Shown here piece after piece: positions 4,750 through 49,223 of a stretch of DNA of 64,000 nucleotides (positions are counted from its first letter, which is position 1; the number at the start of each line of letters is the position of its first letter). Made by a program: the position numbers and the translations under genes. The notes beneath the pieces were generated by a model that saw only the letters and a list, made by a program, of their open reading frames with translations, did no database searches and had not been told where the DNA came from. The stretch covers positions 33,960-97,959 of the forward strand of contig CAIMLR010000017.1 of assembly GCA_903842345.1 (NCBI GenBank). The letters run 5' to 3'. Origin of the DNA: an uncultured Myxococcales bacterium (lineage in GTDB: Bacteria; Myxococcota_A; UBA9042).

Positions 4750-4770
4750 CTTTTTTCGCACCGGAGTCCC

Positions 4771-8295: not shown

Positions 8296-8304
8296 CGGCC
8301 GGGT

Positions 8305-14723: not shown

Positions 14724-14726
14724 GCC

Positions 14727-16058
14727 ATGTCCAACGTCTCCCTACTTCGCCGCCAGGAGATTGTCGCCGCGCTGCGCAACGGCACCGTCCCCGAGTTCGG
14801 CTTTGACCAGCTCGCCGTTGGCATCGAGCGCTTCTCGACCGCCATCGACGAGGAACTGGAGCGCGTGGCCCGCGGCCGCGGCGGATTCAAAGCCGTGCGC
14901 GGCGACTGGGGCGCGGGCAAGACGTTCTTTAGCCGATGGTTGCAGAATCGCGCGCGTGCCCAAGGCTTCGCCACGGCCGAGGTGCAGATCTCCGAGACGG
15001 AGACGCCGCTGTACCGCTTGGAGACCGTCTACCGGCGCGCGATGGAGCACTTGCGGACGCGCGAGTGGAACGACGGCGCTTTTCGCGCGCTGGTGGAGCG
15101 CTGGTTCTTCTCGCTGGAAGAGGAGGTGCTGGCGCAGCCGGGTGCGCCGACTGACGAGAGGCTGGTCGCCAAGGCAGTGGCCGAACTGCTGGAAGGCCGC
15201 CTGAACGCGGTCAGCGCCACGCACCCGCAGTTCGCCGCTGCGCTGCGCGCCGTCTACAAGGCCCGCATGGACGGAGACCCGGCGACCGCCGACGGCCTGC
15301 TGGCGTGGCTGATGGGCGAACCGCATGTGGCCGCCAGCGTGAAGCAGCGCGCCGGCGTCAAAGGCGAGGTCGACCACTTTGCGGCGACCGGGTTCCTGCG
15401 CGGCCTGTTGTCCGTCCTGAACCAGACGGGCCGGCGCGGACTGGTGCTGGTGCTGGACGAGGTAGAGACGATCCAGCGGATGCGCTCCGACGTGCGCGAG
15501 AAGAGCCTGAACGCACTACGGCAGTTCCTGGATGACTTGGACGGCGGTCGCTACCCAGGGCTGTACCTCGTCATCACCGGCACGCCCAGCTTCTTTGACG
15601 GCCCACAAGGCGCCCGCCAATTGCCGCCGCTGGCCCAACGCCTGCACGTCGACTTCGGCGCGGACCCGCGCTTTGACGCCACGCGCGCCATCCAGATCCG
15701 CCTGCAGCCGTTCGACCAGGCGCGACTGTTGGAAGTGGGCCAGAAGGTACGCGCCCTCTACCCGACCAAGCACCCTGAACGCGTAGCAGAGCGGCTGTCC
15801 GACGACGTGCTGGTCGCGCTAGCTCGCAAGGTGGCCGGGCAACTCGGCGGCAAGGTCGGTTTGGCGCCACGGCTGTTCCTGAAGAAGCTCGTCGGCGACG
15901 TGCTGGACCGCATCGAGGAGTACGAGGACTTCGACCCGGTGCAGCACTACCAGCTCACCGTGTCTGCGTCGGAGCTGTCAGACGTGGAGCGCGCCGCGGC
16001 CGGCATCGAGCGCAGCGTCGACGACATCGAGCTTGACCTGAGCGGCGGCGACACGTGA
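14727..16058 (+). CDS. brxD: BREX BrxD ATP-binding protein
   Basis: Walker A RGDWGAGKTFFSRW. 443 aa, typical BrxD size. ATG 4 nt after the pglZ stop. Confidence 0.8.
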   Translation: MSNVSLLRRQEIVAALRNGTVPEFGFDQLAVGIERFSTAIDEELERVARGRGGFKAVRGDWGAGKTFFSRWLQNRARAQGFATAEVQISETETPLYRLETVYRRAMEHLRTREWNDGAFRALVERWFFSLEEEVLAQPGAPTDERLVAKAVAELLEGRLNAVSATHPQFAAALRAVYKARMDGDPATADGLLAWLMGEPHVAASVKQRAGVKGEVDHFAATGFLRGLLSVLNQTGRRGLVLVLDEVETIQRMRSDVREKSLNALRQFLDDLDGGRYPGLYLVITGTPSFFDGPQGARQLPPLAQRLHVDFGADPRFDATRAIQIRLQPFDQARLLEVGQKVRALYPTKHPERVAERLSDDVLVALARKVAGQLGGKVGLAPRLFLKKLVGDVLDRIEEYEDFDPVQHYQLTVSASELSDVERAAAGIERSVDDIELDLSGGDT

Positions 16059-18157
16059 CGGCGTTCGAGCGCTTGAGCCCCGCGATGCAGTACCAGATCG
16101 TCAACGCTCTGGGCTTTCAGTCGCTGCGCCCGGTGCAGGAAGTCGCGATTCCGCCGATTCTGGACGGCGCCAACTGCGTGGTGCTTGCGCCGACGGCGGG
16201 CGGCAAAACAGAAGCGGCGTTCTTCCCGCTGCTCTCGCAAATGGACACGCACGGCTGGCAGCCGGTGTCGGTGCTGTACGTGTCGCCGATCCGCGCGCTG
16301 CTGAACAACCAGGAGGAGCGCCTGCGCAGCTACGCCACCGTGCTGGGGCGTCGTGTGGCGGTATGGCACGGCGACGTCTCGCAGCGGGACAAACGCAAGT
16401 TCCTGCAGGAACCCGCGGACATCCTGTTGACCACGCCTGAGTCGCTGGAAGTGATGCTGATGAGCAGCAAGGTGCCGTCGCGCAGGCTGTTTGCCGGTTT
16501 GCAGGCGGTGGTCATCGACGAGGTGCACGCGTTTGCCGGCGACGACCGCGGCAGTCACCTGATGGCCGTGCTGGAGCGCCTGTGCCGTTTCTGTGGCCGC
16601 GACGTGCAGCGCATTGGACTGTCGGCGACGGTTGGCAACCCGGAGGAAATCCTGACGTGGCTGCAGGGCTCGTCGACGCGGCCGGGCGTGCTGGTGTCGC
16701 CGCCACGGCCACCGTCCACGCCGGAGATTGTCATCGACTACGTCGGCACGCTGGAGAACGCCGCGCGGGTTATCGCGCAGATGCATCGCGGCAAGAAGCG
16801 GCTGGTCTTTCTGGATAGCCGGGCAGGCGTCGAGTCGCTGGGGCAGCACCTGCGGGATCTGGGCGTGGACACGTACGTGCTGCACTCGTCATTGGCGCCG
16901 GATGAGCGGCGCAGGAGCGAAGCGGCGTTCGCCGAGCGGCAGAACTGCGTCATCGTGGCGACCAGTTCGCTGGAGTTGGGCATCGACATCGGCGACCTCG
17001 ACCATGTGCTGCAGATTGACGCGCCACGGACGGTCGCCAGCTTCCTGCAGCGCATGGGGCGGACCGGGCGCCGTGCCGGGGCGACGTCGAACTGCACGTT
17101 CCTGGCCACGGACGATGACGCGCTGTTGCAGGCCGCGGCCCTTTTGCGCCTGTATCGCAATGGCTTCGTCGAGTCGGTAGTGCCGGTGACGCGTGCGTTT
17201 CACATCCTCGCGCACCAGCTGCTGGCGCTGGGGCAGCAGGAGCAAGGCATCCCGCTGGCCGACTGGTGGGCGTGGGTCGGCCAAGCGGCGCCCTTCAAGG
17301 ACATCACCGCCGACGAACGCACCGCGCTCCTCGCGCACATGATGGCGGAGCAGATTCTCGTTGAGGATGGCGGCCGTCTGAGCCTCGGCCCCCAAGGCGA
17401 AAAGCTCTACGGCGGAAAGAACTTCCTGCCGCTGTACTCGGTGTTCGACACTGCGGACAGCCTGGATGTCTGCTACGGCCAGCGTATCATCGGTAATATC
17501 GAGTCCACGTACGTCGAGCAGCAAGGCGCGGGCGACCTGACGTTCACGCTCGGGGCGCGGGCCTGGCGCGGGTTGTACGTCGATTGGCAGCGGCATCGCC
17601 TCTACGTGGAACCGGCAACCCACGCCAATGCGCCATCGTGGCGAGGTTCGCCCGCGTTCCTCTCGTCCGAGCTGTGCGGCGCCATGCGGGACGTGCTGCG
17701 GGACGAAGGTCCCGCACCGGAATGGTCCAAGCGAGCAGAGAGCCAGATGGATGCGGTGCGCAAGACACGTCTGCATCAGGCGGACGCAGACGGGCAGCTG
17801 CTGCCGGAGACGGACGGGCTGTCGCTCTGGACGTTTGCGGGCGGGCGGGCCAACCATGTGGTGGCGAAGGTGCTGCAGGAGCTGATTGGCGAGAAGGTGA
17901 CTGCAGACAACCTGCGGATCAGGTTCAGGAGCGGCGCTGCGGACGTGGAGAAAATTCAGGGTGCGATGCAGGTGCTGGCAGAAGAGCACCGGCCAAACCG
18001 TGAGGATGCCCTGCGGGTGGTGGTGAAGATTGCCAAGGCGAAGTTGAGCAAGTTCCAGCCCTGTTTGCCGCCGGAGCAGGAGGCGGAGGTGCTGGTGGGA
18101 CGGTTGGTGGATTTGGGGGTGGTCGGAGATTTGGTGCGGCGATTGGCGGCGGGGTGA
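16055..18157 (+). CDS. brxHI: BREX BrxHI Lhr-like DEAD/DEAH-box helicase
   Basis: Walker A VVLAPTAGGKTEAAF. Motif II VVIDEVHAF. Helicase C motifs QRMGRTGRR. The GTG start overlaps the brxD stop (GTGA). Confidence 0.85.
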   Translation: MTAFERLSPAMQYQIVNALGFQSLRPVQEVAIPPILDGANCVVLAPTAGGKTEAAFFPLLSQMDTHGWQPVSVLYVSPIRALLNNQEERLRSYATVLGRRVAVWHGDVSQRDKRKFLQEPADILLTTPESLEVMLMSSKVPSRRLFAGLQAVVIDEVHAFAGDDRGSHLMAVLERLCRFCGRDVQRIGLSATVGNPEEILTWLQGSSTRPGVLVSPPRPPSTPEIVIDYVGTLENAARVIAQMHRGKKRLVFLDSRAGVESLGQHLRDLGVDTYVLHSSLAPDERRRSEAAFAERQNCVIVATSSLELGIDIGDLDHVLQIDAPRTVASFLQRMGRTGRRAGATSNCTFLATDDDALLQAAALLRLYRNGFVESVVPVTRAFHILAHQLLALGQQEQGIPLADWWAWVGQAAPFKDITADERTALLAHMMAEQILVEDGGRLSLGPQGEKLYGGKNFLPLYSVFDTADSLDVCYGQRIIGNIESTYVEQQGAGDLTFTLGARAWRGLYVDWQRHRLYVEPATHANAPSWRGSPAFLSSELCGAMRDVLRDEGPAPEWSKRAESQMDAVRKTRLHQADADGQLLPETDGLSLWTFAGGRANHVVAKVLQELIGEKVTADNLRIRFRSGAADVEKIQGAMQVLAEEHRPNREDALRVVVKIAKAKLSKFQPCLPPEQEAEVLVGRLVDLGVVGDLVRRLAAG

Positions 18158-18189: not shown

Positions 18190-18612
18190 TCAAGCCGGAT
18201 CCTGCGGCGGCCAGTCTCCAACCGCTGGTGGGTCAAAGTAACGATCGAGCACAGCAGCCTCGACGCTGGGCTGAGAGCGCAAATAGTCACTAAGGATTTC
18301 GCGGAACGTGCCGCGCCCCAACTCGCTGCGAATTGTTATGTCAATGAAGTTGCTCTTCTTGAGGTTGCAATCGCCGCATAGGTACTCGAGGTTGCTCCAA
18401 CTCGTCTCGCCGAAGAGTGAATATGGCCATCGGTGATCCGCCTGCATTGACGAGAGTCCCACATGATCAATGACTTTTCCACATGGACGGCAAGTCACGA
18501 CCGGGTAGGTGTATCCGACCAACTTCTTTGCGTGCTGACGAAACCACAGATCCCTCCAACTGCTCGGGAACGTCCGCTGAAGGGGGTCACATGTTGGCAC
18601 ATTGTCATCCAC
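18190..18612 (-). CDS. HNH endonuclease
   Basis: 140 aa. HNH motif CRPCGKVIDHVGLSSMQADHRWPYSLFGETSWSNLEYLCGDCNLKKSNF (Cys box plus DH..N..H). Overlaps the upstream DUF262 gene by 8 nt. Confidence 0.8.
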   Translation of the reverse strand: MDDNVPTCDPLQRTFPSSWRDLWFRQHAKKLVGYTYPVVTCRPCGKVIDHVGLSSMQADHRWPYSLFGETSWSNLEYLCGDCNLKKSNFIDITIRSELGRGTFREILSDYLRSQPSVEAAVLDRYFDPPAVGDWPPQDPA

Positions 18613-20188
18613 GGCGCTCTATTTCCTCACAGATTTGAAATGTTGCGTCCACCTGCTGCAATTGCCCGGGCCACTTCCCTTTCGCAATGGGATACTTGAT
18701 TTTGAACTTGTCCTCGATGTCCTTGGGACCGGACGTCAGGAATTCACTCGTCAGGCGCCACTGGCGTTCTGTCATGCCGTCAGGCGACTTGAACGCTTCC
18801 GCAGCCGCAGCAATGAACAGAGCCACCTTGCGCGCTGAACTGACCGTCAGGCTAGGAATCTTTGCCGTCTTGATCGTATTGAACCAGAGCTCAAAGTCAG
18901 CAAACCACCGTTGCACGACCGATAGTGTCGGTAAGAATACGGCTCGATTTTCACCTGAACTCTCGTACAATGCTTGCGCGCAGAACAAGTCGAGAACTGA
19001 GGTGGTCGTCCTGTCGTATCGAATGCGAACCGTGTCTCGTGTTTTTTGGGTCATCAGCGCATCATAGGCACGCCGCGGTCGCTCAGCGAGCATTCGAGCG
19101 ATTACGTAGTACAGGAACATTTCAGATGGCGCTTGTCCGACCGCCTGCCGGCTATCTCCCCACCAAGCGGCCCACGGCTGATGGTCCTTCCATGGAAAAA
19201 CCACACCGTGTCCCTCCGCCGCGGCAATCATGCGGGCGCCGGCCGTTCCCGCCGGTTCTCTGATACCCGCAAGACGAATCAGAGATACCCGAGCACAATC
19301 GCCGAAAGACGCCAAGCGGAGGTCGTGCGCGCTGAGAGGGACTCCCTCTTCATTGATCCGGCGAAAAATCAGCAGGCGCAGACTGAGATCAAGATTTTTC
19401 GGAAGAACGATAAGGTTGATCACGTAATCCCGGATTTGTTCTTGGATGTCCGGAGGCAACTCGCTGAAATGCTTTCCTTGAATCTGCGCGCCAACGTTCT
19501 CGGCATACTCAACGTCGTTTTCTGACGCCAACTTGAATTGATCCCTCATGAAGGAGTCTAGGGTGGTCAGCCGCTGTTGGCCATCAATAACTTGTCTGAC
19601 TTCAATTCCCGCCGAATCATCCTCAGGATACACGAGGATAGGTGGCACGGTAAGGTTGTTGATTACGGATTCAATGAAAAGCGATCGCTTCTCGTCACTC
19701 CACTCCGCCGCGTCGCGCTGATACGAGGGGATCTTGTACTTTCCTCGTCTCATCGACCCCATAATGGTGGCGACGTTCAGCGATTGTGCTGTGGTTGCGG
19801 ACGTGACGAGCGGCATGAAGGTGGGCATTTGTCCCTCGCGGTTGCCATTGGTAATTGGCGTAATTGATGGCACGACCGCGCCAACGCTAAGTGACGTTGA
19901 TCGCGCGGTCACCGCTTGAACAACAGGTGCGGTCGAGTCCGAACGTCCCGATCCTAGCGCTGCCTGCAGGTAATAGCCCCACGACCCGGCGGCGCGGATG
20001 ACCCGTCGTGCCGGATCAGCGGACACCACCGACAATCGAGACCGAATGCTGCCGTTCGAGTACCCCTGCGCCGCGAAATCCGCATCTGCGTTCAATCGTC
20101 CGATGACATCGGTCGCGCTCATGCGCTCGGCGATATCAGATGACAAAAACTTCTCAGCGCATTGTTCGATCCAGTCGTCCATGTTCAT
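18605..20188 (-). CDS. DUF262 (ParB-like nuclease/GmrS N-terminal family) protein, the partner of the HNH nuclease in a split GmrSD-like type IV restriction module
   Basis: DUF262 motifs KYKIPSYQRDAAEW and IDGQQRLTTL. The C-terminal half has no HNH motif; the nuclease is supplied by the downstream ORF. The ATG at 20188 is preceded by GGGAGA; the track start is TTG at 20203. Confidence 0.75.
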   Translation of the reverse strand: MNMDDWIEQCAEKFLSSDIAERMSATDVIGRLNADADFAAQGYSNGSIRSRLSVVSADPARRVIRAAGSWGYYLQAALGSGRSDSTAPVVQAVTARSTSLSVGAVVPSITPITNGNREGQMPTFMPLVTSATTAQSLNVATIMGSMRRGKYKIPSYQRDAAEWSDEKRSLFIESVINNLTVPPILVYPEDDSAGIEVRQVIDGQQRLTTLDSFMRDQFKLASENDVEYAENVGAQIQGKHFSELPPDIQEQIRDYVINLIVLPKNLDLSLRLLIFRRINEEGVPLSAHDLRLASFGDCARVSLIRLAGIREPAGTAGARMIAAAEGHGVVFPWKDHQPWAAWWGDSRQAVGQAPSEMFLYYVIARMLAERPRRAYDALMTQKTRDTVRIRYDRTTTSVLDLFCAQALYESSGENRAVFLPTLSVVQRWFADFELWFNTIKTAKIPSLTVSSARKVALFIAAAAEAFKSPDGMTERQWRLTSEFLTSGPKDIEDKFKIKYPIAKGKWPGQLQQVDATFQICEEIERRG

Positions 20189-20308
20189 GACAGAATCTCC
20201 CAAGAGTCAAGTCGTACACGTCCGTCCGCTGTGAACGTGTCGAGCGCATCCACGCACGAGTCTAGGCCCGGCACCCGGCTTCGGTCAACCGCGCAGAAGG
20301 ACGAAGGA

Positions 20309-20635
20309 CTACCACCTTCGGCGCCGGCCCCCCTTGTCGCCGAGCACGCCAAAACGCAGCAGCTCATCGCGATCCAGCAGATACTCCTCGCCCTCCTTCA
20401 AGTACTTGGCGATGAAGCGCATCTCCATCTCGCCCGCCTCGTGCTCGTCCTTGCGCTCGGTCAGCGACTCGATGGGATTGCCGTTCGTGTAGTTCATGCC
20501 CTCGACTTGCGCGGCCTTCAGGTTGTTGATCTGCGCGTCATACGTCGCAGCGCGTTCGTGATGAAACTCGGCGCTCGCGATGCACAACTCGCGTAGTTCT
20601 GCGGTGGGGATGCAAACTTTCAGTCCTTCAATCAC
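20309..20635 (-). CDS. Hypothetical protein (108 aa)
   Basis: ORF only. No recognisable motif. Lies in a defence island. Confidence 0.4.
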   Translation of the reverse strand: MIEGLKVCIPTAELRELCIASAEFHHERAATYDAQINNLKAAQVEGMNYTNGNPIESLTERKDEHEAGEMEMRFIAKYLKEGEEYLLDRDELLRFGVLGDKGGRRRRW

Positions 20636-20677: not shown

Positions 20678-21211
20678 TCAGCGGCTGCGCCCACGGCCGA
20701 CGGGCACCAAGCCCATCATGCGTTCGCCGTTGTGGTAGTAGACGATGAAGGCGCGGCAGCCGTCGGCCCAGAGCTCGTCGCGGCCGGCCGACATCCCGTT
20801 GTTGGCAGAGGCGATGTTGGTGAACACGAAGTCGCGGCCGGCGTTGAAGGCGGCGACGACCGCGGCGACGTTGCGGCAGTTGACCGGCGCGCGCAGTGTC
20901 GCGCGTGGACCGCCGTTCGGCGTGCCGGACTTGAACTCCGGACAGACATCCGGGTCCAGGTCGACCGGCGCGTCGATCGGCTGGTCGGGCTTCTGCTCGC
21001 GTTGTGTCTGCTCCTTGGGCGTCGGCTCTTCGTCGAGGCCCAGTTCCGAGAAGTCGACGTTTTGCAGCATCGCGACGATGACTCGCCCCATAACGCCACC
21101 ATCCGCTTCGCTCGACGCCCTGGGCTGGTCTACGTCGTCTTCGAACAGGCAATCGAACTCGTCTGCATCGTCGCGCGGCATGGAGCTGGGTTGATCTTCG
21201 GTCTTGGACAT
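20678..21211 (-). CDS. Hypothetical acidic protein (177 aa)
   Basis: ORF with an Asp/Glu-rich N-terminus. Same orientation as the 108-aa ORF, 43 nt apart. Confidence 0.4.
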   Translation of the reverse strand: MSKTEDQPSSMPRDDADEFDCLFEDDVDQPRASSEADGGVMGRVIVAMLQNVDFSELGLDEEPTPKEQTQREQKPDQPIDAPVDLDPDVCPEFKSGTPNGGPRATLRAPVNCRNVAAVVAAFNAGRDFVFTNIASANNGMSAGRDELWADGCRAFIVYYHNGERMMGLVPVGRGRSR

Positions 21212-21269: not shown

Positions 21270-21380
21270 ATCGAGTGGGCTTGCTTGACAAGCATACGGC
21301 AATAACATAATGATGTCAAGTAGTTGAGAAAACAAGGCGAACGATTAAGGAAAATGACGGGGAAAAAAGAGCGGCGACGG
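21270..21380. promoter_or_regulatory. AT-rich divergent intergenic region, a probable promoter/operator for the WYL regulator and the minus-strand genes
   Basis: An unusually AT-rich stretch (aataacataatgatgtcaagtagttgagaaaacaaggcgaacgattaaggaaaatgacgggg) in a ~69% GC background. Confidence 0.3.
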
Positions 21381-21799
21381 CATCGTCGTCTGCCAAAAAG
21401 CCCTCGTTCTATTTGTGCGAGCAAGAAATCGGCAAATTGTGCATTCAAGGTCTTCTTCTTGACGCACAGGCGATTTCCACTTCTTGCACGACGATTATTC
21501 TTTCGCCCCTTCGCAGCAGATTTCCTCCTCGCCTCGTGTTTCTTTCCGCGTCGCATTTCTGCTTTTTGCGGCGCGAATGCTTGCGGAGCGGTTTCAAGGC
21601 CCAATTGCCGCCGGACCTGGGCTTCCGCCGTGCCGGGCCACGCCAGCGCCCCCAAAAGTCGATGGAAGCATCCTCCCGGCCCCCAGCGACAACGACTGTC
21701 GCATTCGCGCCCGAGCCTCCACGTCCCGCTTGTGCGAAACCGGGCCATCGACAAGACTCGCCGCCAGCGCGAAGCGCGCACGCAACAGCGAGGCCGACG

Positions 21800-22801
21800 A
21801 TGTCCGATACCGTACTCCGCCACTGGACGATGCTCCGCCAGGTCCCGCGCCATCCGCGCAAGGTAGGCGCCGCACAATTGGCCCGAGTGCTCAGCAACGC
21901 TGGCTTTGACGTCTCGCGGCGATCCATCGAGCGCGACCTCAACAAGCTCTCGACCGTGTTCCCGCTGCGCTGCGATGACGAGCACAAGCCGTACGGCTGG
22001 TCATGGATGGCCGACGCGACCGCGTTCGACTTGCCCGCGATGGACGTTCACGCGGCATTAGCGTTCCGCATGGCCGCAGATCATCTGCACGCGCTGCTCC
22101 CCGAGGTGACGCGCAGCCACCTGGACCCGCACTTCCGGCGAGCGAAGGCCGTGCTCGATGGCCTGAATGACAACGTGCTCTCCGATTGGCCGGACAAAGT
22201 GCGCGTCATGCCAGCGGGCCAGCCGATGCTGCCGCCGGCGATCCCGCAGGACGTGCTGGAAAACGTGCAGGCGGGGCTGCTGGCGGAGAAACAATTGCGC
22301 GTCGTGTACCGCAAGCGCGGTGAGGCGGAGGCGCGGACGTACCTCGTGCATCCGCAGGCGCTCGTCTGGCGCGACGCGGTCGGGTACTTGCTGTGTATTT
22401 TGTGGAAATACGACGATTTGAAGCAGTTCGTGCTGCATCGCATGGAGTCAGTCGAGCTGGTGGACGAGCCGCGCCGTCCGCTGCCTGGCTTCTCGCTCGA
22501 CGCGGAGATCGCGACTGGCTCGTTTAGCTTCTTGCTGGCTGACCAGTCGATCGAGCTGGAGGTGCTGTTCCATGCATTCGCCGCAGTCCGGGTGCGCGAG
22601 ACGCCGGTGGCCGTGACCCAGGAGCTGGTCGAGCAGCCCGACGGCAAGATCCTGCTCCGCGCCACGCTGGCCGACACCGTGCAACTGCGGACGTGGCTGC
22701 TCAGCATGGGCGAGTACGCGGAAGTGCTGGGGCCGCCGGCGTTGCGCAAGTCGATCGCGACCAGCATCCGCGAGATGGCGGACAAGTACGCGGGCGACTA
22801 A
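21800..22801 (+). CDS. HTH plus WYL-domain transcriptional regulator (BrxR/CapW-like)
   Basis: ATG at 21800 (MSDTVLRHWTMLRQVPRHPRKVGAAQLARVLSNAGFDVSRRSIERDLNKL is an N-terminal wHTH like YafY/BrxR). WYL-type segment RVVYRKRGEAEARTYLVHPQALVWRDAVGYLLC. 333 aa. The track ORF extends upstream to TTG 21413 through a low-complexity leader. Confidence 0.75.
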   Translation: MSDTVLRHWTMLRQVPRHPRKVGAAQLARVLSNAGFDVSRRSIERDLNKLSTVFPLRCDDEHKPYGWSWMADATAFDLPAMDVHAALAFRMAADHLHALLPEVTRSHLDPHFRRAKAVLDGLNDNVLSDWPDKVRVMPAGQPMLPPAIPQDVLENVQAGLLAEKQLRVVYRKRGEAEARTYLVHPQALVWRDAVGYLLCILWKYDDLKQFVLHRMESVELVDEPRRPLPGFSLDAEIATGSFSFLLADQSIELEVLFHAFAAVRVRETPVAVTQELVEQPDGKILLRATLADTVQLRTWLLSMGEYAEVLGPPALRKSIATSIREMADKYAGD

Positions 22802-22870
22802 TCGGCAGCGGAAACGCATGCGACACGGATTGTCGCAGCCTTCCCGTACATTCTACGGCGGAGGTTTCCC

Positions 22871-24916
22871 ATGTTTGAATACGAACTCACAGCCGACAGC
22901 CACACTCGCCAATGCGCCATCTGGACCACCCGCCTGGTCCTCGCGGGCCTCGCGCACCATCCGCGTGGGCCTGACGCGTTGGATACCTTGGACACCGAGA
23001 CGCGGCGACTCGTTGGCCTGCAGCACACGCCGGAGCACTCGCCCCTTACGGTTGCTGCACTGCAAGACCGCCTAGCGGCGCTGGAACCTGACAAGTCGGC
23101 GCGCGGAGGGGCGCTGTTTGCCAACGTGACGATGCTCGGCGACTCGCTTGGGCTGTCGAAGTTGGAGCGCGACCTGCTGGCGCTCGCGGTCATGATGAAC
23201 ACGACGGAGGGTGTGAACGAGATCTTCTGGCAGATCGCGCCGGTGCCGTGGTCTCGCGTGGCGGCGATTCTGGCAGCGGTCCTGGAGTCGACGCCGGCGG
23301 AAATGCACGCTGCTCTCAGCCCTGGGGCGCCACTCGTCGCGACACGGCTGGTCAAGCGCGGTGGAGTGCGCAAACCTCAGCAACTGCTGGACTTGCCGGA
23401 GGGTTTTGTCGGGCTGATTCTGGAAGAACATAGCGACGCGGACGCGCTGGTCGCCAACCTGTTCCGCCCCGCGCCGCCTCCGACGCTGACAATCGCCGAT
23501 TTTCCGCACGTCGCGGCCGATCTGGAGCTGCTGGTGCCGATCCTCAAGACGGCGTACCGCGATGGGACACTCGGGTTTGACGTGCTCATCCATGGACCGC
23601 AGGGCACGGACAAGACGGAGCTGGTGCGGGTCATTGCGCATGAAGTCGGCGCGCGGCTGTGCGAAGTGAATCTCGTGGACAACGACGGCGATGCGCTGAG
23701 CGGCGGCAAGCGGCTGGCGGCGTGGGCGCTGTCGCAGGGGATACTGAGGCACAAACCCGGGTCATTGTTGCTGTTTGAGAAAGCGGAGGCCGTGTTTCCA
23801 TGCGACCCTCGGGCCAGAATATTCGGCGAGGAGCCGGAAAGTCGCGTTGGCGAGGGCTGGCTGAACCGCGCGCTGGAGACGCATCCGGTGCCCACGGTGT
23901 GGGTCAGCAACGCGATTGACCAGCTCGACCCCGCGTACCTGCGGCGCTTTGACATCGTCGTGGAGGTGGGGCCCGCGCCGGCGTCGATTCGGCGACAGAT
24001 GCTGAACCGGCATTTGAGCGCGCTACCGCTGGGCGATTCGTGGCTGGATCGCGCGGCAAACGACGTGCGGCTAGCTCCTGCGCACGTGAAGAGGGCGGCG
24101 CGGGTGGTGCGCATGCTGGAGTCGGACTGCGCTGTGACGACGGAAGCCGCGCTGGACCGCCTGCTGGAGCCGGGACTGGACGGAAGTGGCACCCGACGAA
24201 TTGGCGGGACAATGGACGTCGGGCCGTACGACCTGAGCTTGGTGAACGCCAGCCGCGACGTGCAAGCACTGGGTGCGGCTTTGGCCAAGAATCCGCGCGG
24301 GACGCTGTGCCTGTACGGGCCGCCGGGGACGGGCAAGACGGCGTTCGTGCAGCACTTGGCGACGCTGACGGGTTTGCCGCTGTTGCAGAAACGCGGCTCG
24401 GATTTGAGGGGCAAGTACGTCGGCGAGACGGAGAAGGCGATCGCAGCAATGTTCCGTCAGGCGCGTGACGAGCGGCGCATGCTGTTCCTCGACGAAGCGG
24501 ACACGTTCCTGCAGGATCGCTCGACCGCGCAGCGCCATTGGGAGGTGTCGTTCGTCAACGAACTGTTGGTGCAGATGGAGGCGTTTGACGGGCTGTTTGT
24601 CTGCGCGACCAACCTTGTGGACAGCCTGGACCGGGCGTCGCTGCGGCGATTTTCGCTGAAGATTCGCTTCGATCCGCTGAGCGCGGTGCAGCGGTGGGAG
24701 ATGTTGACGCAGCTCTGCGGGAAGACGCCAGAAGAGTCCCTGCGGGCGCGGCTGGACAAGGCGGACGGGCTGGCGGCGGGCGATTTCGCCGTGGTGGCGC
24801 GGCAGGAGGCGATGCTCGGCACGCAGGCATCGGCCGAGGCGATGGTCACGGCGCTGGAGGAGGAACTGGCGATGAAGTCCGGGACGGCGCGGCGGGTGGC
24901 GGGATTCGCCAGATGA
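22871..24916 (+). CDS. Tandem AAA+ ATPase (two AAA modules)
   Basis: First Walker A VLIHGPQGTDKTELV. Second Walker A LCLYGPPGTGKTAFV, with Walker B LFLDEADTF and a CbbX/SpoVK-like module. 681 aa. Starts 70 nt downstream of the WYL regulator. Confidence 0.8.
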   Translation: MFEYELTADSHTRQCAIWTTRLVLAGLAHHPRGPDALDTLDTETRRLVGLQHTPEHSPLTVAALQDRLAALEPDKSARGGALFANVTMLGDSLGLSKLERDLLALAVMMNTTEGVNEIFWQIAPVPWSRVAAILAAVLESTPAEMHAALSPGAPLVATRLVKRGGVRKPQQLLDLPEGFVGLILEEHSDADALVANLFRPAPPPTLTIADFPHVAADLELLVPILKTAYRDGTLGFDVLIHGPQGTDKTELVRVIAHEVGARLCEVNLVDNDGDALSGGKRLAAWALSQGILRHKPGSLLLFEKAEAVFPCDPRARIFGEEPESRVGEGWLNRALETHPVPTVWVSNAIDQLDPAYLRRFDIVVEVGPAPASIRRQMLNRHLSALPLGDSWLDRAANDVRLAPAHVKRAARVVRMLESDCAVTTEAALDRLLEPGLDGSGTRRIGGTMDVGPYDLSLVNASRDVQALGAALAKNPRGTLCLYGPPGTGKTAFVQHLATLTGLPLLQKRGSDLRGKYVGETEKAIAAMFRQARDERRMLFLDEADTFLQDRSTAQRHWEVSFVNELLVQMEAFDGLFVCATNLVDSLDRASLRRFSLKIRFDPLSAVQRWEMLTQLCGKTPEESLRARLDKADGLAAGDFAVVARQEAMLGTQASAEAMVTALEEELAMKSGTARRVAGFAR

Positions 24917-25027
24917 TGAAGCTGGCTCGGTGACGCCCTCGTGCGCGCCGCCTTCCAGTGAGGCACGCCAACCGCTAGAGTTGGTCGACTGGCCAGCCGC
25001 CGCGACCATGTTCCAAGAGGCAGACCC

Positions 25028-25753
25028 ATGAAGTTGCGCATCCTCTCCGACCTCCACTTCGAGTTCCACCCGGACGCTGGGCGTGGCTTCGTACGATCGC
25101 TCCAAGTCGAGCCAGATGAGGTCCTGGTCCTCGCTGGCGACCTCGCGACGCCCGAACTTCTGCCGCAGTCGCTGGACCTGCTTTGCCAGCGCTTTCGCCA
25201 CGTGGTGTTCGTCGCTGGCAATCACGAGTACTACGGCCGATCGCCCGACGAGGTGCACGAGATTCTGCGCGCGGCCGTGGGTCGCAACGCCAACTTGCAC
25301 TGGCTCGAATCTGCTGCCGTGATGATCGAGGAGCAGCGTTTCGTCGGCGCGACGTTGTGGTTTGGTGAAGAGGCGGGCGAACAGCCAGGACGCCATTTCC
25401 TAAATGACTTTGCCGTCATCGACGACTTCGAGCCTTGGGTCTACAGCCAGCATGAGCGCGCCGTTGCGTACTTGAGCCGCACTATCCGCGCTACGGATGT
25501 CGTCATAACCCATCACTTGCCGGCCCAGGCATGCGTCTCGCCGAAGTGGCGGAGCTCGCCGCTGAACCCGTTCTTCGTGCACGACATGGAGCCGCTCATC
25601 CGTGCGCGTCAGCCGAAGCTCTGGGTGCACGGGCACACGCATTCCGCCGTGGACGTGAAGGTCGGTCAGACGCGCGTCGTGGCGAATCCACTCGGCTACG
25701 TGGGGCATGAGGCGCAGGACGGGTTTATCGACCGACTGGTGGTGGAGGTGTAG
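25028..25753 (+). CDS. Calcineurin-like metallophosphoesterase
   Basis: Motifs LVLAGDL (GD), VAGNHEY (GNHE) and ITHHLP. 241 aa. Confidence 0.8.
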   Translation: MKLRILSDLHFEFHPDAGRGFVRSLQVEPDEVLVLAGDLATPELLPQSLDLLCQRFRHVVFVAGNHEYYGRSPDEVHEILRAAVGRNANLHWLESAAVMIEEQRFVGATLWFGEEAGEQPGRHFLNDFAVIDDFEPWVYSQHERAVAYLSRTIRATDVVITHHLPAQACVSPKWRSSPLNPFFVHDMEPLIRARQPKLWVHGHTHSAVDVKVGQTRVVANPLGYVGHEAQDGFIDRLVVEV

Positions 25754-25755
25754 TT

Positions 25756-25774
25756 AAATTTTACGTGATATCAC
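25756..25774. repeat. Short AT-rich motif copy (AAATTTTACGTGATATCAC) 2 nt after the metallophosphoesterase stop
   Basis: GTATTT..GTGATAC family. Contains the palindrome GTGATATCAC. Confidence 0.45.
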
Positions 25775-26502
25775 TCCCACAGGCCGCACCGCCATTCCGG
25801 TTACCTCTTGAAAAACCTCGTTGGCCCGTTTGTCGGGCGAATGCTACTTTGACGATCCGGCTCGTGGATGGTCGAGCCAGATGGTGGACCGTGGCCAAAA
25901 CGTCATCAACGCCTGGACAAAGTCTGCGAACGCTGTTGCGGGCAGCATTGGAAGCCGCGCGCGCAGCAGATGTGCCTTACGCGATCGGCGGTGCGCTCGC
26001 GATGCATGCGCATGGGTTCGAGCGCAGCACGAAGGACGTGGACATCTTCGTCGCGCAAGAGAACGCGTTCGCGCTGTTGCGTGCGCTACGTGTGCTCGGA
26101 TTGAAAGTCATTCCGATTTCCGAGCCGAACAATTATGCTGCTTATTTACCCAACACGACAGATCCCGAAGAACGCATCGATGTCATTGTGCCTGAAGGTG
26201 AGCCAGGGTTGAGCGCCATTGAATGGTCGGAAACTAAAGAACTTTTCGGGAGCGCGGCCCAAGTTTTCCCGCTCGACTTGCTGGTGTTCGCCAAGGGGTG
26301 CGCGTTGCGCCCCAAGGATGAATTCGACCTCGCCTCACTGATGGCGCGAGGCATGTTCGACCCGCGCCAGGTAAGCGAGTTGATTCGCTCGATAGACCCC
26401 GAAGGGGCGGATGAGTTCGATCGTGCGATTCAGCGGTTGACGCGGCCATCTCCGCCACGCCGACCGCCGCTGCTTTCTCGATTGCCACCCCGTAAGCGCT
26501 AA
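25765..26502 (+). CDS. Nucleotidyltransferase-fold protein (AbiEii/MNT-like)
   Basis: NTase signature AIGGALAMHAHGFERSTKDVDIFV (hGG...S..DhD). The GTG start is uncertain; the first ~45 codons may be non-coding. Confidence 0.6.
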   Translation: MISLPQAAPPFRLPLEKPRWPVCRANATLTIRLVDGRARWWTVAKTSSTPGQSLRTLLRAALEAARAADVPYAIGGALAMHAHGFERSTKDVDIFVAQENAFALLRALRVLGLKVIPISEPNNYAAYLPNTTDPEERIDVIVPEGEPGLSAIEWSETKELFGSAAQVFPLDLLVFAKGCALRPKDEFDLASLMARGMFDPRQVSELIRSIDPEGADEFDRAIQRLTRPSPPRRPPLLSRLPPRKR

Positions 26503-26611: not shown

Positions 26612-26725
26612 ACACGCCGTCATGCGCAAAACTCACTGATTTCCTGAGATAAGAAGCATGACGAGGCAAAGTCTGCCCGCGTCACAGTGTCTTTTTCCCA
26701 TTCGTATTTCAGGAGCTTTCCCACC

Positions 26726-26935
26726 ATGAACATCAAAATCCTCCGCCTCGGTCATTCCGCCCGCCATCACGAAGCCGCTGCCGGCGCCACCGTCGGCGAA
26801 GTCCTGGACGCGGTCGACCTGCCCGCCGCCGGTCACGCCATCTCGGTCAACGGCTTGGGCGCCAGCACGACCACCGGCCTCAGCGACGGCGACGTCGTCA
26901 CGCTGGTCCCGAAGGTCGAGGGCGGCAGCAAGTAA
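26726..26935 (+). CDS. Ubiquitin-like (beta-grasp, ThiS/MoaD/BilA-like) protein, 69 aa, ending ...VEGG-SK
   Basis: ATG at 26726, preceded by AGGAG at 26711. 69 aa with a C-terminal di-Gly followed by two residues (VEGGSK). Sits immediately upstream of E2-like, JAB and E1 genes. Confidence 0.6.
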   Translation: MNIKILRLGHSARHHEAAAGATVGEVLDAVDLPAAGHAISVNGLGASTTTGLSDGDVVTLVPKVEGGSK

Positions 26936-27009
26936 GCGATCCCGCAACACATTCGCCCGCTGGGCCGCATCCGGTGCGTCCGGAGCGGCTCGGCTGGCGG
27001 GGAGGCAAC

Positions 27010-28026
27010 ATGCATCACTGTGACCAGACCATGGCCGCGTACCTGCTGGATTGGCAGGCGAAGCTCGGCTTGAACATCCGCTACCAGCGTTGGTCGGCGC
27101 GGTACACCGACCCGGCGCCTTTCCGCCGCGAGATTGAACTGTTGGGCCCGATTGCTGGGACCGCAGACGAATGCCGGTTGCCGTACAAGGACGGCGTGCA
27201 GACGGTCAACGTCGTGCACGGCCGTCCTCACACGGGCGAGCCGGTCGAGCTGACCATCGACGGCGAGACCTTCGTGGTCGCGTCTGTTGAAGGCCGGCGC
27301 GTGCGCCTGGCGTTCGATCTCGAGCGCCTGTTTGAAGTGCCGGGCGAGATCCAACCGGGCCTCATCCTGGAAGCGGTCCTGGGCGCGGCGTTGCCACTGG
27401 CAGCGGCGTACATCAGTGCCTACGACTGGGAGCGCGAGAAGGCGGAGTTCGGGGCGTGGATGGTGTCGTCGGTCGACGGCATGGTCCGCAACTGGAAGAA
27501 CGCCATCCGCGACAATGAATACGAGGCCAACCGCCTGACGTCGCAAATCAGCGGCCTGGTACGCAAGAACGGCGAGCTGCGTGAGCAGATTGTGGCGCTT
27601 GAAGCAACGACGCGCCCGGCGCAGGAGACCAAAGCGGCGGAAGAGTTCGCGGCGCTGGTGAAGATGATGCCGTCGCCGGTCGTGAGTGTGGAAGTCGACT
27701 ACGGCAAGCTGAGCATCGTGCTGGAGCCGCTCACGTTGGAGCACGACAGCACGGACTACCGGATGGGCAGCTATACGCTGACGGTCACCGCCGACAAAGT
27801 GCACATCTGGTCGGACGGCGGTTTCAGCTATCCGCACCCGCACGTGAGCAGCGACGGCGTGCCCTGCTGGGGCAATCTGGGCCCCGGCATTGGCAAGTTG
27901 CTCGGCGAGGGCCAGTACGCGGCGTTGGTCAGCGTGATTCTGGAGTTTCTCCACAGTTACAACGAGCGCGACGCGTACCGGCACATCGAGACCTGGGACC
28001 CGGATTACAACAGCGAAGACGATTAG
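27010..28026 (+). CDS. E2-like (UBC-fold) ubiquitin-conjugating enzyme homolog with a ~230-aa N-terminal extension (BilB-like)
   Basis: C-terminal motif YPHPHVSSDGVPCWGNLGPG resembles the E2 HPN(I/V)...G.IC active site (candidate catalytic Cys in VPCW). ATG at 27010, preceded by GGAGG. The track alternative is GTG at 26974. Confidence 0.55.
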   Translation: MHHCDQTMAAYLLDWQAKLGLNIRYQRWSARYTDPAPFRREIELLGPIAGTADECRLPYKDGVQTVNVVHGRPHTGEPVELTIDGETFVVASVEGRRVRLAFDLERLFEVPGEIQPGLILEAVLGAALPLAAAYISAYDWEREKAEFGAWMVSSVDGMVRNWKNAIRDNEYEANRLTSQISGLVRKNGELREQIVALEATTRPAQETKAAEEFAALVKMMPSPVVSVEVDYGKLSIVLEPLTLEHDSTDYRMGSYTLTVTADKVHIWSDGGFSYPHPHVSSDGVPCWGNLGPGIGKLLGEGQYAALVSVILEFLHSYNERDAYRHIETWDPDYNSEDD

Positions 28027-28061
28027 CGTCAGCGCGACCGGCATCGACAACAGACGGCCTC

Positions 28062-28088
28062 GGGCAGTTTCCACGGTGGAAACTGCCC
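28062..28088 (+). terminator. Perfect 12-13 bp inverted repeat (GGGCAGTTTCCAC-G-GTGGAAACTGCCC) followed by GCGCTTTTGG. Intrinsic terminator/attenuator-like hairpin between the E2 and JAB genes.
   Basis: Read directly. Located 36 nt after the E2 stop and 28 nt before the JAB ATG. Confidence 0.4.
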
Positions 28089-28115
28089 GGGGTCGTCGCG
28101 CTTTTGGAGACGAAC

Positions 28116-28715
28116 ATGAAAGTGAAACAGAATCTGCGGGTTCGCATCGACGCGGACGCCATGGAGCGCATCTGGCACTGGACCGACCTGGCGGCAGGCG
28201 AGTTTTCCTGCCTGGGGACTGTCGCCGACGACATCCTCGTTGGCGATGTGCGCCTGTTCGATCAGATCTGCACGGCGGCCAGCACGGAGCTGGACCAGGA
28301 GGCGCTGGCGAAGTTCCTCGTGACGCATCCTCAGCCCGAGCACGTGCGGGCGTGGATCCACAGCCACGGGCGCCTGGGGGTCTTCTGGAGCCAGCAGGAC
28401 GAGGCGTGCATCGAGGGCCTGGCCAACGAGGCGTGCCTGATCAGCATCGTGGTCAACAAGAAGCGCGAGTGGAAGGCGCGGATCGACGTCTGGCAGCCGT
28501 TTCGGCTGACCTTCGACGACCTGCCGCTGGAAATCCGCCTGCCCGACCAGAACCTGCGCGGCGAGTGCGAACGCCTGTTCAATGCGCATGTGGTCGAGAT
28601 GGCGCCGGTGCTGATGCCGGATTGGCGCGGTGGTGTGCGGCAGCAGCAGCAACAGAGCCAGCCGTATCGGGGCGGGTGGCCTGATTTTGACGACGATTTG
28701 GCAGACTGGAGGTAA
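28116..28715 (+). CDS. JAB/JAMM (MPN+) metalloprotease, a deubiquitinase-like peptidase (BilC/Cap3-like)
   Basis: JAMM motif E(FSCLG)...HSHGRLGVFWSQQD, which is HxHx7Sx2D. 199 aa from ATG 28116. The track start is TTG at 28104. Confidence 0.75.
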   Translation: MKVKQNLRVRIDADAMERIWHWTDLAAGEFSCLGTVADDILVGDVRLFDQICTAASTELDQEALAKFLVTHPQPEHVRAWIHSHGRLGVFWSQQDEACIEGLANEACLISIVVNKKREWKARIDVWQPFRLTFDDLPLEIRLPDQNLRGECERLFNAHVVEMAPVLMPDWRGGVRQQQQQSQPYRGGWPDFDDDLADWR

Positions 28716-28718
28716 GCA

Positions 28719-29342
28719 ATGAATTTCCATCGACAACTGGATGTGCTGGATGTTCCGCGGCTGGCGCGGACGCCCATCACGGTCATTGGCGCGGGAGCGG
28801 TGGGCAGCTTCACCGTGCTGGCGTTGGCAAAGAGCGGCGCGGAAAACATCACCGTTTGGGATGACGACAGCATCGAGAGTCACAATTTGCCGAGCCAGTG
28901 GTACCGCCTGGCGGATTTGGGACGGCCGAAGGTGCTGGCGCTCAAGGCGCTGGTGTTGGAGATGACCGGCGTGGACATCAAGGTGGTGCAAGAGCGCTTC
29001 CAGGGCGACGGTGCGACGGAACTGACCATCTGCTGCGTGGACAGCATGGACGCGCGCATCGCGTTGTGGAGGCAACTTCATCCACGGCCTGCGCTTTATG
29101 TCGATGCGCGCATGGGCGCCGAGGTCGGCAAGGTCATGTGCGTCGGCGCGTTCGGCTCCTGGTACGAGGAAACGCTGCACCCCAGCAGCGAAGCGTACCG
29201 GGCACCGTGCACGGCGCGCGCGACCATGTACTGCGCCAGCGGCCTGGCGGCTTTCATCGCCGGGCAAGTGGCGAACTACGCCAGCGACCGGCCCACCCGG
29301 GACGAGATGACCGTCGATTTTCGCAACGGAATCATCATCTAA
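28719..29342 (+). CDS. E1-like ThiF/MoeB-family adenylyltransferase (BilD-like)
   Basis: Rossmann motif ITVIGAGAVGSFTVLALAKSGAENITVWDDD. 207 aa. Starts 3 nt after the JAB stop. Confidence 0.8.
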   Translation: MNFHRQLDVLDVPRLARTPITVIGAGAVGSFTVLALAKSGAENITVWDDDSIESHNLPSQWYRLADLGRPKVLALKALVLEMTGVDIKVVQERFQGDGATELTICCVDSMDARIALWRQLHPRPALYVDARMGAEVGKVMCVGAFGSWYEETLHPSSEAYRAPCTARATMYCASGLAAFIAGQVANYASDRPTRDEMTVDFRNGIII

Positions 29343-47064: not shown

Positions 47065-47221
47065 CGCGCCGCTGAGCCGAAGCCCCGTTCGCCAGTCCAC
47101 GTTCACCCCTGGCGTCAAGCACAAGTTGTCGTGCTGATGTTGACGATACTACCGCCAATGACCAAGCAGCAAGGGTCTATAGCGGGTTCAATGTCAACGA
47201 TGCGCCGCCGACACTTCCGGC

Positions 47222-49018: not shown

Positions 49019-49180
49019 GACCAGCTCCGGTGGCGGGATGAGCGCCGTGGTGCGCCGACCGACGCGACGCGTGCCGTCAGGGTAGCACAATTGGAGATTG
49101 GGCAGTCGCGGCAGACGGCCGGCGCGAGCGGCAAGAAGCCAAGCGGCGATGGGGAAATATGCCGGAGACAGCTGGACCTG

Positions 49181-49207
49181 CGGCCGAATCACGGAAAATA
49201 CGCGGTG
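49181..49207. repeat. Short AT-rich motif copy in reverse orientation (rc: GCGTATTTTCCGTGATTCGG)
   Basis: Lies just downstream of the stop of the 49224-50534 minus-strand gene. Confidence 0.4.
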
Positions 49208-49223
49208 GGCACCTGCCTCGGCG

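Follow-up and report, generated by a model that had tools for sequence, protein, structure and literature searches.

The region 21800-26502 of the window, by which we mean the whole stretch of 64,000 nucleotides analysed here (contig CAIMLR010000017.1 of an uncultured Myxococcales bacterium), raises the question of whether four consecutive genes form one dedicated defence system or whether only some of them belong together. A sequence-only reading had described these genes as a WYL regulator, an ATPase with two AAA+ modules, a calcineurin-like metallophosphoesterase (MPE) and a protein with a nucleotidyltransferase (NTase) fold, and had proposed them as a candidate uncharacterised defence module. 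The four open reading frames (ORFs) were recovered where that reading had placed them, all on the plus strand, and Pfam and motif analyses agreed with the domains assigned to them. The idea of a single module did not survive the comparison with related loci, as the arrangement of WYL, AAA+, MPE and NTase genes was repeated at none of the 68 other loci of the AAA+ family. We consider it reasonably probable that the locus is a mosaic organised around a two-gene cassette, consisting of the WYL regulator and a Cdc48/Rix7-like AAA+ ATPase linked by an operator, with the MPE as a variable add-on and the NTase as a passenger.

Association of the WYL and AAA+ genes across loci

The WYL regulator (21800-22801, plus strand, 333 aa) and the tandem AAA+ ATPase (22871-24916, plus strand, 681 aa) are separated by 69 nt between the WYL stop codon and the ATG of the ATPase. 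The association of the two genes was evaluated on 69 non-redundant AAA+ family loci taken from species-representative genomes, viral contigs, plasmids and the contigs of the closest homologues; 55 of these loci were cellular and 14 viral, and 197 non-family loci were used for comparison. WYL genes were detected with a hidden Markov model (HMM) built from the WYL proteins of family loci. Of the 55 cellular loci, 27 contained a WYL gene; its distance from the AAA+ gene was at most 3 kb in 22 of them and at most 600 nt in 13, while neither the viral family loci (0/14) nor the non-family loci (0/197) contained any. Nine of 11 annotated plasmid loci encoded a "WYL domain-containing protein" within 5 kb of AAA+, with the two genes in either order. 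When the Pfam families of 132 neighbour ORFs from 34 genome loci were tallied, WYL ranked first with nine occurrences, followed by SIR2 with five, and Metallophos was counted twice.

The identities of the WYL and AAA+ proteins also dropped in step. In locus L087, the closest relative of the window, a WYL orthologue 74% identical to the window protein lies 1.2 kb upstream of an AAA+ gene whose product is 68% identical. Neither an MPE nor an NTase gene adjoins the closest AAA+ homologues: a Fic gene follows the 68%-identical AAA+ gene of L087, an integrase gene follows a 60%-identical one, and an unknown gene follows a 56%-identical one, with a Fic gene just upstream of the latter. Across the 69 loci, WYL is the only consistent partner of the AAA+ gene. 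Divergent WYL genes hidden among the unannotated neighbours of L090, L041, L185 and other loci were considered, and the HMM returned no matches there.

A conserved palindrome as putative operator

When the intergenic regions of the window and of L087 were compared, a shared palindrome emerged, TGCGACA-N5-TGTCGCA. The window carries an exact copy (TGCGACA-CGGAT-TGTCGCA) at 22819-22837, within the WYL-AAA+ spacer and 33 nt before the ATG of the AAA+ gene, and a copy with one mismatch (AGCGACA-N5-TGTCGCA) at 21685-21703, 96 nt before the WYL start codon; both are predicted operator sites. Allowing up to two mismatches, four palindromes were found in the 64-kb window against 0.64 expected. The two best ones flank the WYL gene and the other two, with two mismatches each, fall inside distant coding sequence.

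The same palindrome was then followed through the family. With at most one mismatch it was present in 13 of 64 family loci, and among the other loci in L270 only, which itself proved to be a family locus with the site placed between divergent WYL and AAA+ operons. With at most two mismatches, 16 of 62 other family loci had it in the 250 nt before the AAA+ start, usually at a distance of 26-49 nt. Given a background rate of 0.0006 per 250 nt, about 0.04 sites would be expected in total, compared with the 16 loci observed. These loci span several phyla, including Anaeromyxobacter, Burkholderiales, Pantoea, Rhodobacterales and Haemophilus, the last with a GC content of 36%, and gene order was irrelevant. 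The WYL-AAA+ spacer of a Sphaerotilus plasmid holds an exact palindrome although its AAA+ protein is only 37% identical to that of the window, and L087 has two exact copies upstream of its AAA+ gene despite two antisense genes that separate WYL from AAA+. In L087, L035 and L041 the palindrome also occurs just upstream of the WYL genes.

The expectation that the WYL factor controls the gene immediately downstream was thus well supported, by the conserved palindrome both in the spacer and upstream of AAA+ at the 16 other loci. Because the palindrome is conserved upstream of the AAA+ start across loci, the AAA+ gene is very probably a direct and conserved target of this WYL clade, as judged from sequence conservation. 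The WYL factor probably regulates its own gene as well, through the predicted site at 21685-21703.

The putative operator resembles the box recognised by DriD, whose consensus is ATACGAC(N7)GTCGTAT (PMC10853764). The core CGAC-N7-GTCG is common to both, whereas the half-site reads TACGAC in the DriD box and TGCGAC in the window palindrome. DriD homologues have a copy of the site upstream of their own gene, and the same is seen in the window.

Some loci showed the palindrome in other settings. In L088 and L090, which carry the 60%- and 56%-identical AAA+ proteins, it is kept 34 nt upstream of the start codons, and a WYL gene was not detectable within the contig; these loci may have lost their regulator, or it may act in trans. 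In L009 an exact palindrome (13970-13988) immediately precedes a gene for a PP2C-type phosphatase, which is located some 2 kb downstream of AAA+. This site, together with the recurrence of PP2C genes in Haemophilus, suggests that the WYL regulon can include a phosphatase.

The WYL regulator

The WYL protein matched the Pfam families WYL (1e-12, residues 151-220) and WCX (8e-17, residues 251-327), both above the cut-offs, and the PADLOC WYL profile with 3.7e-26. The PADLOC WYL profiles align from residue 18 onwards, and a Pfam HTH domain was not matched at E < 0.01. When solved structures were searched with phmmer, residues 34-327 aligned with residues 50-341 of DriD (PDB 8tp8), and 9pfq was matched as well. 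DriD is therefore among the best sequence matches with a solved structure, whereas BrxR and CapW were not among the PDB matches at E < 0.01. The protein is classified as a transcription factor of the DriD/BrxR type and is closest to DriD among solved structures. Its WYL-WCX arrangement is that of DriD and BrxR/CapW, and a winged helix-turn-helix (wHTH) domain probably precedes it, as in those regulators.

WYL regulators gate BREX, CBASS and DNA-damage genes, and the WYL + tandem AAA+ cassette falls within this known class of WYL-gated stress and defence operons. A tandem AAA+ ATPase has not been described as a target of the DriD, BrxR or CapW regulons in the literature examined, in contrast with its predicted place here as a conserved target.

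The DNA upstream of the WYL gene was also inspected. Two small genes on the minus strand (20309-20635 and 20678-21211) had no Pfam or PHROG matches. They were considered as parts of the cassette and set aside, as the two similarly placed small genes of L087 have no detectable similarity to them. The 590 nt preceding WYL were likewise examined for a non-coding RNA or a structured leader, and both were rejected, with no Rfam match and a folding z-score of only -1.2. At 21285-21319, about 480 nt upstream of the WYL start, an overlapping divergent pair of sigma-70-like promoters lies on a palindrome TTGACA...TGTCAA. It borders a stretch of lower GC content (21320-21560) that has neither an Rfam match nor unusual RNA structure.

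The tandem AAA+ ATPase

The AAA+ protein was matched by Pfam AAA in two stretches (1.2e-39), and its AlphaFold2 model had a pLDDT of 87.6. The best Foldseek matches of this model were the type II AAA ATPases Rix7, Drg1/AFG2 and Cdc48/p97, which aligned over both rings with a probability of 1.0 and about 520-580 aligned columns for Cdc48/Rix7-type proteins, and phmmer returned AFG2 and VAT. As judged from the model, the protein is a type II AAA+ ATPase of the classical clade bearing an all-helical N-domain. This family-specific domain (approximately residues 1-220) occupies the N-terminal part of proteins whose length is mostly 680-730 aa, with 366 representatives at 50% clustering; the shorter proteins with this domain are probably fragments. 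Members of the family were also found on 14 viral contigs, five of which measure 360-561 kb, and the full length of the window protein matched phrog_10401 with 5.7e-78.

The two rings of the window copy are differently preserved. The translation of D2 contains GPPGTGKT, LFLDEAD, a KYVGE pore loop and LRRF arginine fingers. In D1 the corresponding motifs, at residues 242-249 and 301-308, read GPQGTDKT and LFEKAEAVF, whereas the family consensus is GPPGTGKT and LFDExEDVF in all 35 other aligned members (34 with DE and one with EE). As both Walker motifs are degenerate, D1 of the window copy is predicted to be catalytically dead and possibly unable to bind nucleotide. A sequencing error is not the cause of this degeneracy, since the identical protein was seen on 11 contigs.

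The comparison with Cdc48/p97, VAT, Rix7/NVL and Drg1/AFG2 extends to two stacked AAA modules, arginine fingers of the second-region-of-homology type and the YVG pore loop in D2. At the same time, Cdc48/p97-type unfoldases are only about 20% identical to the window protein, their N-domain is a double-psi barrel in place of the unique all-helical domain found here, and their ubiquitin-adaptor context is missing for this family. A link of the ATPase with the neighbouring operon of ubiquitin-like (Ubl), E2-like, JAB and E1 genes was discarded, as homologues of these genes occurred at no other AAA+ locus.

Assignment to a named system was evaluated on curated profiles. The IetA profiles matched the D2 module (5e-30 in PADLOC and 4e-25 in NCBIfam), the match being confined to residues 463-640, the generic AAA core. 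Unlike the window protein with its two modules, IetA contains only one AAA module, and it has the IetS protease as its partner. The NCBIfam model NF042959 reached 88.6 bits (residues 463-634) against a cut-off of 510, and none of the neighbouring window ORFs contained a peptidase domain such as that of the subtilase-type IetS, so that IetAS was rejected. A housekeeping role as CbbX Rubisco activase, which the sequence-only reading had named as an example of a finding that would overturn it, was also discarded: TIGR02880 gave 20.1 bits against a cut-off of 459, and Rubisco genes were not present among the neighbours surveyed. Matches to TRIP13 and to proteasomal ATPases were limited to the generic AAA core and were far below the curated cut-offs. 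The CDC48-like ATPases associated with CoCoNuT differ from the window protein in architecture.

The earlier statement that the locus corresponds to no named system was confirmed, with PADLOC and NCBIfam yielding only partial, sub-threshold matches to IetA and TRIP13, and SbcCD being unfit. A named system combining WYL and AAA+ was found neither in the literature nor among the profile libraries searched, and within the same scope a conserved Cdc48-like double-ring ATPase as a direct WYL target is undescribed.

The metallophosphoesterase as a variable neighbour

The MPE gene (25028-25753, plus strand, 241 aa) follows the AAA+ gene on the same strand after 111 nt, and a terminator-like site was not found in this spacer. 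The two genes may therefore be co-transcribed. The protein matched Pfam Metallophos (2.3e-10) and all its metal-ligand motifs are intact (D8/H10, GD38, GNHE65-67, HH162-163 and HGHTH201-205). Among solved structures, sequence matches were restricted to 6unc and, weakly, Lmo2642. An SbcCD/Mre11-Rad50-type pairing was rejected, as the partner is a classical AAA+ protein, neither ABC nor SMC, and an SbcC/Rad50-type partner was not present at the window MPE.

The protein belongs to a mainly phage-borne subfamily, with at least 563 relatives on viral contigs. It matched phrog_1649 with 1.2e-42 (147 bits), much more strongly than the modest match to PDC-S10 of PADLOC (1.5e-12, 45 bits, residues 1-215), a profile that has no curated cut-off. 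The close homologues (82% and 76% identical) each occur singly in a variable region, near Schlafen-like (SLFN/AlbA_2), HigBA, patatin or Ubl-type genes, as would be the case for a single-gene candidate such as PDC-S10. To our knowledge, PDC-S10 is an untested candidate. A homologue of AAA+, WYL or NTase was present at none of the best 80 viral MPE loci. A close MPE homologue in L176 adjoins a Multi_ubiq/Prok-E2_E and JAB-ThiF pair.

The sequence-only reading had made its proposal dependent on the synteny of the AAA+ and MPE genes in other genomes, and this synteny largely fails. Genes of the MPE superfamily occurred at 10 of 64 AAA+ loci and within 3 kb at five. In the viral contig L095, an MPE gene lies directly downstream of AAA+ after a gap of 106 nt. 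Relatives with about 50% identity to the window MPE lie near AAA+ in L091 and apparently, as matching lengths of contig and protein suggest, in the same operon on the P0012 contig. The subfamily of the window MPE is found near AAA+ in at most two further contigs. The MPE is possibly a non-obligate member of a variable enzyme layer, or else an unrelated neighbour, and we regard it as rather doubtful, although conceivable, that it functions together with the ATPase at the window locus.

The NTase-like gene as a probable passenger

The fourth gene had been reported to begin 11 nt after the MPE gene. This spacing holds for the ORF, which is open from a GTG at 25765, 11 nt past the MPE stop codon. 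The real start is probably the GTG at 25864 (25864-26502, plus strand, 212 aa), as homologues are 165-215 aa long and residues 1-50 of the model are disordered, and the gap to the MPE gene would then be 110 nt. The GC content at third codon positions (GC3) is 0.64 in this gene, compared with 0.80-0.86 in the WYL, AAA+ and MPE genes.

The alignment of homologues displays the NTase motif GG...DVD...IDV, and Foldseek placed MenT1 first (E 2e-7, TM-score 0.66-0.70 normalised to the target), followed by ANT(2'')-Ia and LnuA. MenT1 (Rv0078A), a toxin of M. tuberculosis, is of similar size, has the GG...DxD...D motif and shares 20-24% identity with the window protein. In contrast to AbiEii-type proteins, the window NTase did not match Pfam AbiEii/DUF1814 and gave only a sub-threshold match to Aminoglyc_resit. 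The motif and the structural matches confirm the NTase fold. A cognate antitoxin was not recognisable beside the gene, the gene upstream being the MPE, which is not conserved with the NTase.

A large protein search returned a small family of ten full-length homologues and one marginal partial match. These relatives stand alone among housekeeping genes, occur in differing contexts for the same protein or lie in phage-like strings of small ORFs, and one is located on a 46-kb viral contig. On the contigs that could be read, neither MPE nor AAA+ was adjacent to an NTase homologue. We judged the NTase to be an unrelated, recently acquired passenger. Members of the family end, after the folded domain, with a conserved basic tail R-L-P-x-R-K-R (RLPPRKR in the window, 26440-26502), which might be a nucleic-acid-binding tail or a secretion signal.

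Other variable neighbours of the AAA+ family

Besides the MPE, a changing set of enzymes accompanies the ATPase, and the gene that follows it varies between loci within a restricted repertoire. Sir2 occurred at 6 of 64 AAA+ loci and is translationally coupled in Sphaerotilus, DUF2779 at 5 of 64 and additionally in Sphingobium, RtcB at 4 of 64 and Fic at 3 of 64. A PP2C phosphatase was present at three loci (L009, L030 and L033, the last two from Haemophilus), as checked with Pfam for L009 and L033. An ADP-ribosylglycohydrolase (ARH) together with a PD-(D/E)XK nuclease was found at two loci, in Leisingera, where a UvrD helicase gene comes next, and in Fuscovulum. A cREC-RNase T exonuclease of the DEDD type was found in L091 and a dual-specificity phosphatase in Sphaerotilus. 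At 110 control loci, Sir2, DUF2779, Fic and MPE genes were absent and RtcB occurred in two. Further neighbours of the pair were a hypothetical-PLD operon in Rhodoferax and hypothetical-hypothetical-SNF2 genes in Pantoea.

The wider surroundings of the family included PglZ, BrxA, SspE, HEC-06, PDC-S05 and PDC-S23 by PADLOC and GmrSD_N by Pfam, as well as toxin-antitoxin genes, integrases, insertion sequence elements and conjugation genes, while some AAA+ loci had plain housekeeping neighbours. The repertoire of variable enzymes overlaps that of the predicted conflict and repair systems described by Iyer et al. 2022 (PMC9503650), which are centred on ADP-ribosylglycohydrolases, ADP-ribose and RNA ends, are regulated by WYL or Nudix proteins and comprise, with the WYL repressor, phosphatases including calcineurin-like ones, 'chaperones', nucleases and helicases. 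Two family loci, those of Leisingera and Fuscovulum, carry AAA+-WYL-ARH-PD-(D/E)XK. The chaperones listed for those systems are of the vWA, SseB and TY types and do not include an AAA+ ATPase, and an ARH/ARG gene is missing from the window, so the likeness is thematic. In L087, the segment 424-5674 holds a set of SWIM, MoxR-like AAA and DUF2201 (vWA-type) genes together with a further tandem AAA protein of another kind that bears a WHD domain, and this looks like another conflict-type ternary system.

Possible mechanism and alternative explanations

On the model of DriD and CapW, the WYL domain of the proposed cassette would sense single-stranded DNA (ssDNA) that arises when DNA is damaged or a phage infects the cell, and would thereby change the occupancy of the operator. 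The ATPase would be made upon this signal and might assemble into a hexamer that unfolds or extracts a protein target, possibly recognised by the family-specific helical N-domain. D2 is the likely motor, as its Walker A and B motifs, YVG pore loop and LRRF arginine fingers are intact. Within mobile and defence-rich DNA, the cassette might attract enzymes acting on nucleic-acid ends, nucleotides and phosphoproteins, and the MPE would be the local example of this variable enzyme layer. Since the cassette is mobile and often resides in defence-rich DNA, its genomic context makes an anti-phage or damage-response role plausible. We raise tentatively, as a possibility we lean away from, that the WYL + tandem AAA+ pair is an undescribed and self-contained immune or damage-response system, in which a protease-free unfoldase effector would be switched by ssDNA through a DriD-box operator and be complemented by a swappable enzyme layer. 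If true, the action of p97-type segregases in stress and immunity would have a counterpart in bacteria.

Several observations weigh against the interpretation of the locus as an operator-linked cassette. Half of the cellular loci have no WYL gene within 10 kb and the same is true of all 14 viral members, so that the ATPase can work without a linked regulator. Among the members examined, the Walker A glycine and the Walker B DE pair of D1 are missing only from the window copy, which could be functionally decaying. The 69-nt spacer showed no convincing sigma-70 promoter, and the operator sits where the core promoter should be, which favours repression relieved by a signal; the sign of the regulation is not readable from sequence, however, and activation in the style of DriD may take place. 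A habitat in common may explain part of the enrichment of MPE, Sir2 and RtcB; the control loci for this enrichment were archaeal Cdc48 and phage AAA loci and not matched defence islands. Genes in GC-rich loci were called by our own ORF heuristics. Moreover, every step of the proposed mechanism rests on sequence, model or analogy.

The alternative closest to the original proposal, in which the four genes would form one dedicated anti-phage system with the MPE and the NTase as effectors of the ATPase, appears highly improbable. The shared strand, the short gaps and the missing terminator-like site from AAA+ to MPE would fit such a system, and so would its position between the BREX-2/GmrSD genes and the Ubl/E1/JAB operon, the match of the MPE to the PADLOC candidate PDC-S10, the MPE adjacent to AAA+ in L095 and the MPEs in an apparent operon on the P0012 contig and in L091. 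These features have to be set against the lack of any other locus with all four genes and against the Fic, integrase or uncharacterised neighbours of the closest AAA+ homologues. The 82%- and 76%-identical MPE homologues are solitary and 0 of 80 viral MPE loci have AAA+, WYL or NTase, while NTase relatives are rare and never linked to the other three genes, the GC3 of the NTase gene is foreign, and the operator lies in the window only upstream of WYL and AAA+. A different function for the same pair, which we consider rather unlikely although it deserves attention, is that of a module for DNA/RNA-damage response and repair in place of an immune system: a DriD-like ssDNA sensor would induce a Cdc48-like segregase for the removal of trapped or damaged complexes of protein and nucleic acid, with the assistance of end-processing enzymes such as MPE, RtcB, DEDD exonuclease, RecB-like DUF2779 and Sir2. 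Operator and regulator both resemble those of DriD, which governs a damage regulon independent of SOS (PMC10853764). The recurrent neighbours (RtcB, Sir2, MPE, cREC-RNase T and DUF2779) are of the end-healing or repair type, and comparative genomics has tied sirtuins, cREC and calcineurin-like phosphoesterases to RNA-end repair (PMC9503650). Nevertheless, the family is patchy and is found on plasmids, beside integrases and in defence islands instead of at fixed chromosomal positions, core repair genes are not consistently linked to it, and phage copies exist.

Two further explanations were considered. In one, which we consider quite unlikely, the AAA+, MPE and NTase genes would be cargo of mobile elements or phages for counter-defence or host takeover, acting for example by degrading signalling nucleotides, repairing cleaved tRNA or dismantling host immune complexes, and would have come under WYL control only secondarily. 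This would account for the full-length PHROG match and the 14 viral contigs of the ATPase, five of them of 360-561 kb, for the phrog_1649 match and the 563 or more viral-contig relatives of the MPE subfamily, for the NTase relatives on a viral contig of 46 kb and among phage-like strings of ORFs, and for the resemblance of the RtcB, Sir2 and cREC neighbours to phage RNA-repair sets (PMC9503650, PMC7824862). It is less easily reconciled with WYL-regulated copies that reside in cellular replicons beside bona fide defence genes, or with the window ORFs scanned, among which conjugation and phage structural genes were not found; the viral AAA+ copies, being devoid of the regulator, may represent a different use of the same enzyme. 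In the other, very unlikely in our view, the AAA+ protein would be part of the switch, remodelling or removing WYL or another repressor, and the pair would serve as a portable switch for adjacent defence genes, here BREX-2. Analogous switches based on a protease are CapH/CapP. The pair does occur beside varied systems, with BREX-2 at two independent loci and with hypothetical-PLD, hypothetical-hypothetical-SNF2 and ARH-nuclease-UvrD operons elsewhere. On the other hand, the operator precedes the AAA+ gene itself, which marks AAA+ as a target and not as part of the regulator, the palindrome was not found upstream of the window BREX genes, and the 14 viral and half of the cellular members have no WYL gene, with BREX-2 linkage at only 2 of 69 loci.

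The reading of the locus as a WYL-AAA+ cassette with variable additions also corrects the annotation of the window, in that the MPE and the NTase should not be labelled as belonging to a common system with the ATPase. Sequence clusters with the cassette number a few hundred and range from Myxococcota-like genomes to Haemophilus, with plasmids and defence islands among the locations. The defined 19-bp operator and the existence of cultured carriers make the cassette directly testable.

Flanking regions of the window

The same DNA was present in several freshwater metagenome assemblies. Both flanks of the locus were as the sequence-only reading had claimed. Upstream, a BREX type 2 operon extends over 358-18157 and encodes PglW, PglX, PglY, PglZ, BrxD and BrxHI. 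This Pgl-like operon is complete, and includes a PglW kinase with a NERD domain, a PglX methylase with DUF7008 and the BrxHI helicase. BREX-2 lies beside WYL-AAA+ at two of the 69 loci, the window and a plasmid of Sphaerotilus sulfidivorans whose BrxD is 62% identical; on that plasmid, a homologous BrxD/BrxHI/PglZ set precedes WYL-AAA+. BREX-2 was discarded as the regulated target, as it is linked at these two loci only and the palindrome was not found elsewhere in the BREX region.

The interval between the BREX operon and the WYL cassette holds a GmrSD_N (DUF262) gene of the type IV-like restriction kind, at 18605-20203 on the minus strand. Its GC3 is 0.62, against about 0.85 in the window, and it is probably a recent insertion. 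In the metagenome copy it is immediately preceded by a predicted small HNH gene.

Downstream of the NTase gene, an operon at 26687-29342 encodes a ThiS-like Ubl protein, a JAB protein and a ThiF/E1 protein. The ThiS-like protein has GG near its C-terminus (…VEGGSK), the JAB match is weak and PRTRC-A-like, and the operon also contains a 350-aa protein without a family match. This operon is followed by DUF6908 and then, according to Pfam matches on the identical metagenome contig, by genes for a Rad52-like protein and for a REase-ARP/PDDEXK_13 protein.

The window ORFs scanned contained neither conjugation nor phage structural genes. A setting within an integrative and conjugative element or a plasmid was rejected, as the large downstream ORFs are not conjugation genes and encode proteins with Dicty_CTDC and FGE-sulfatase domains instead, a type associated with Myxococcota. 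Taken with the matches to Myxococcales and Polyangiaceae in the protein searches, they hint at the lineage of the host. These very large proteins, encoded on the minus strand at 41188-47124 and 47669-49354, contain Dicty_CTDC repeats, an FGE-sulfatase domain and Kazal/antistasin motifs, and are probably secreted.

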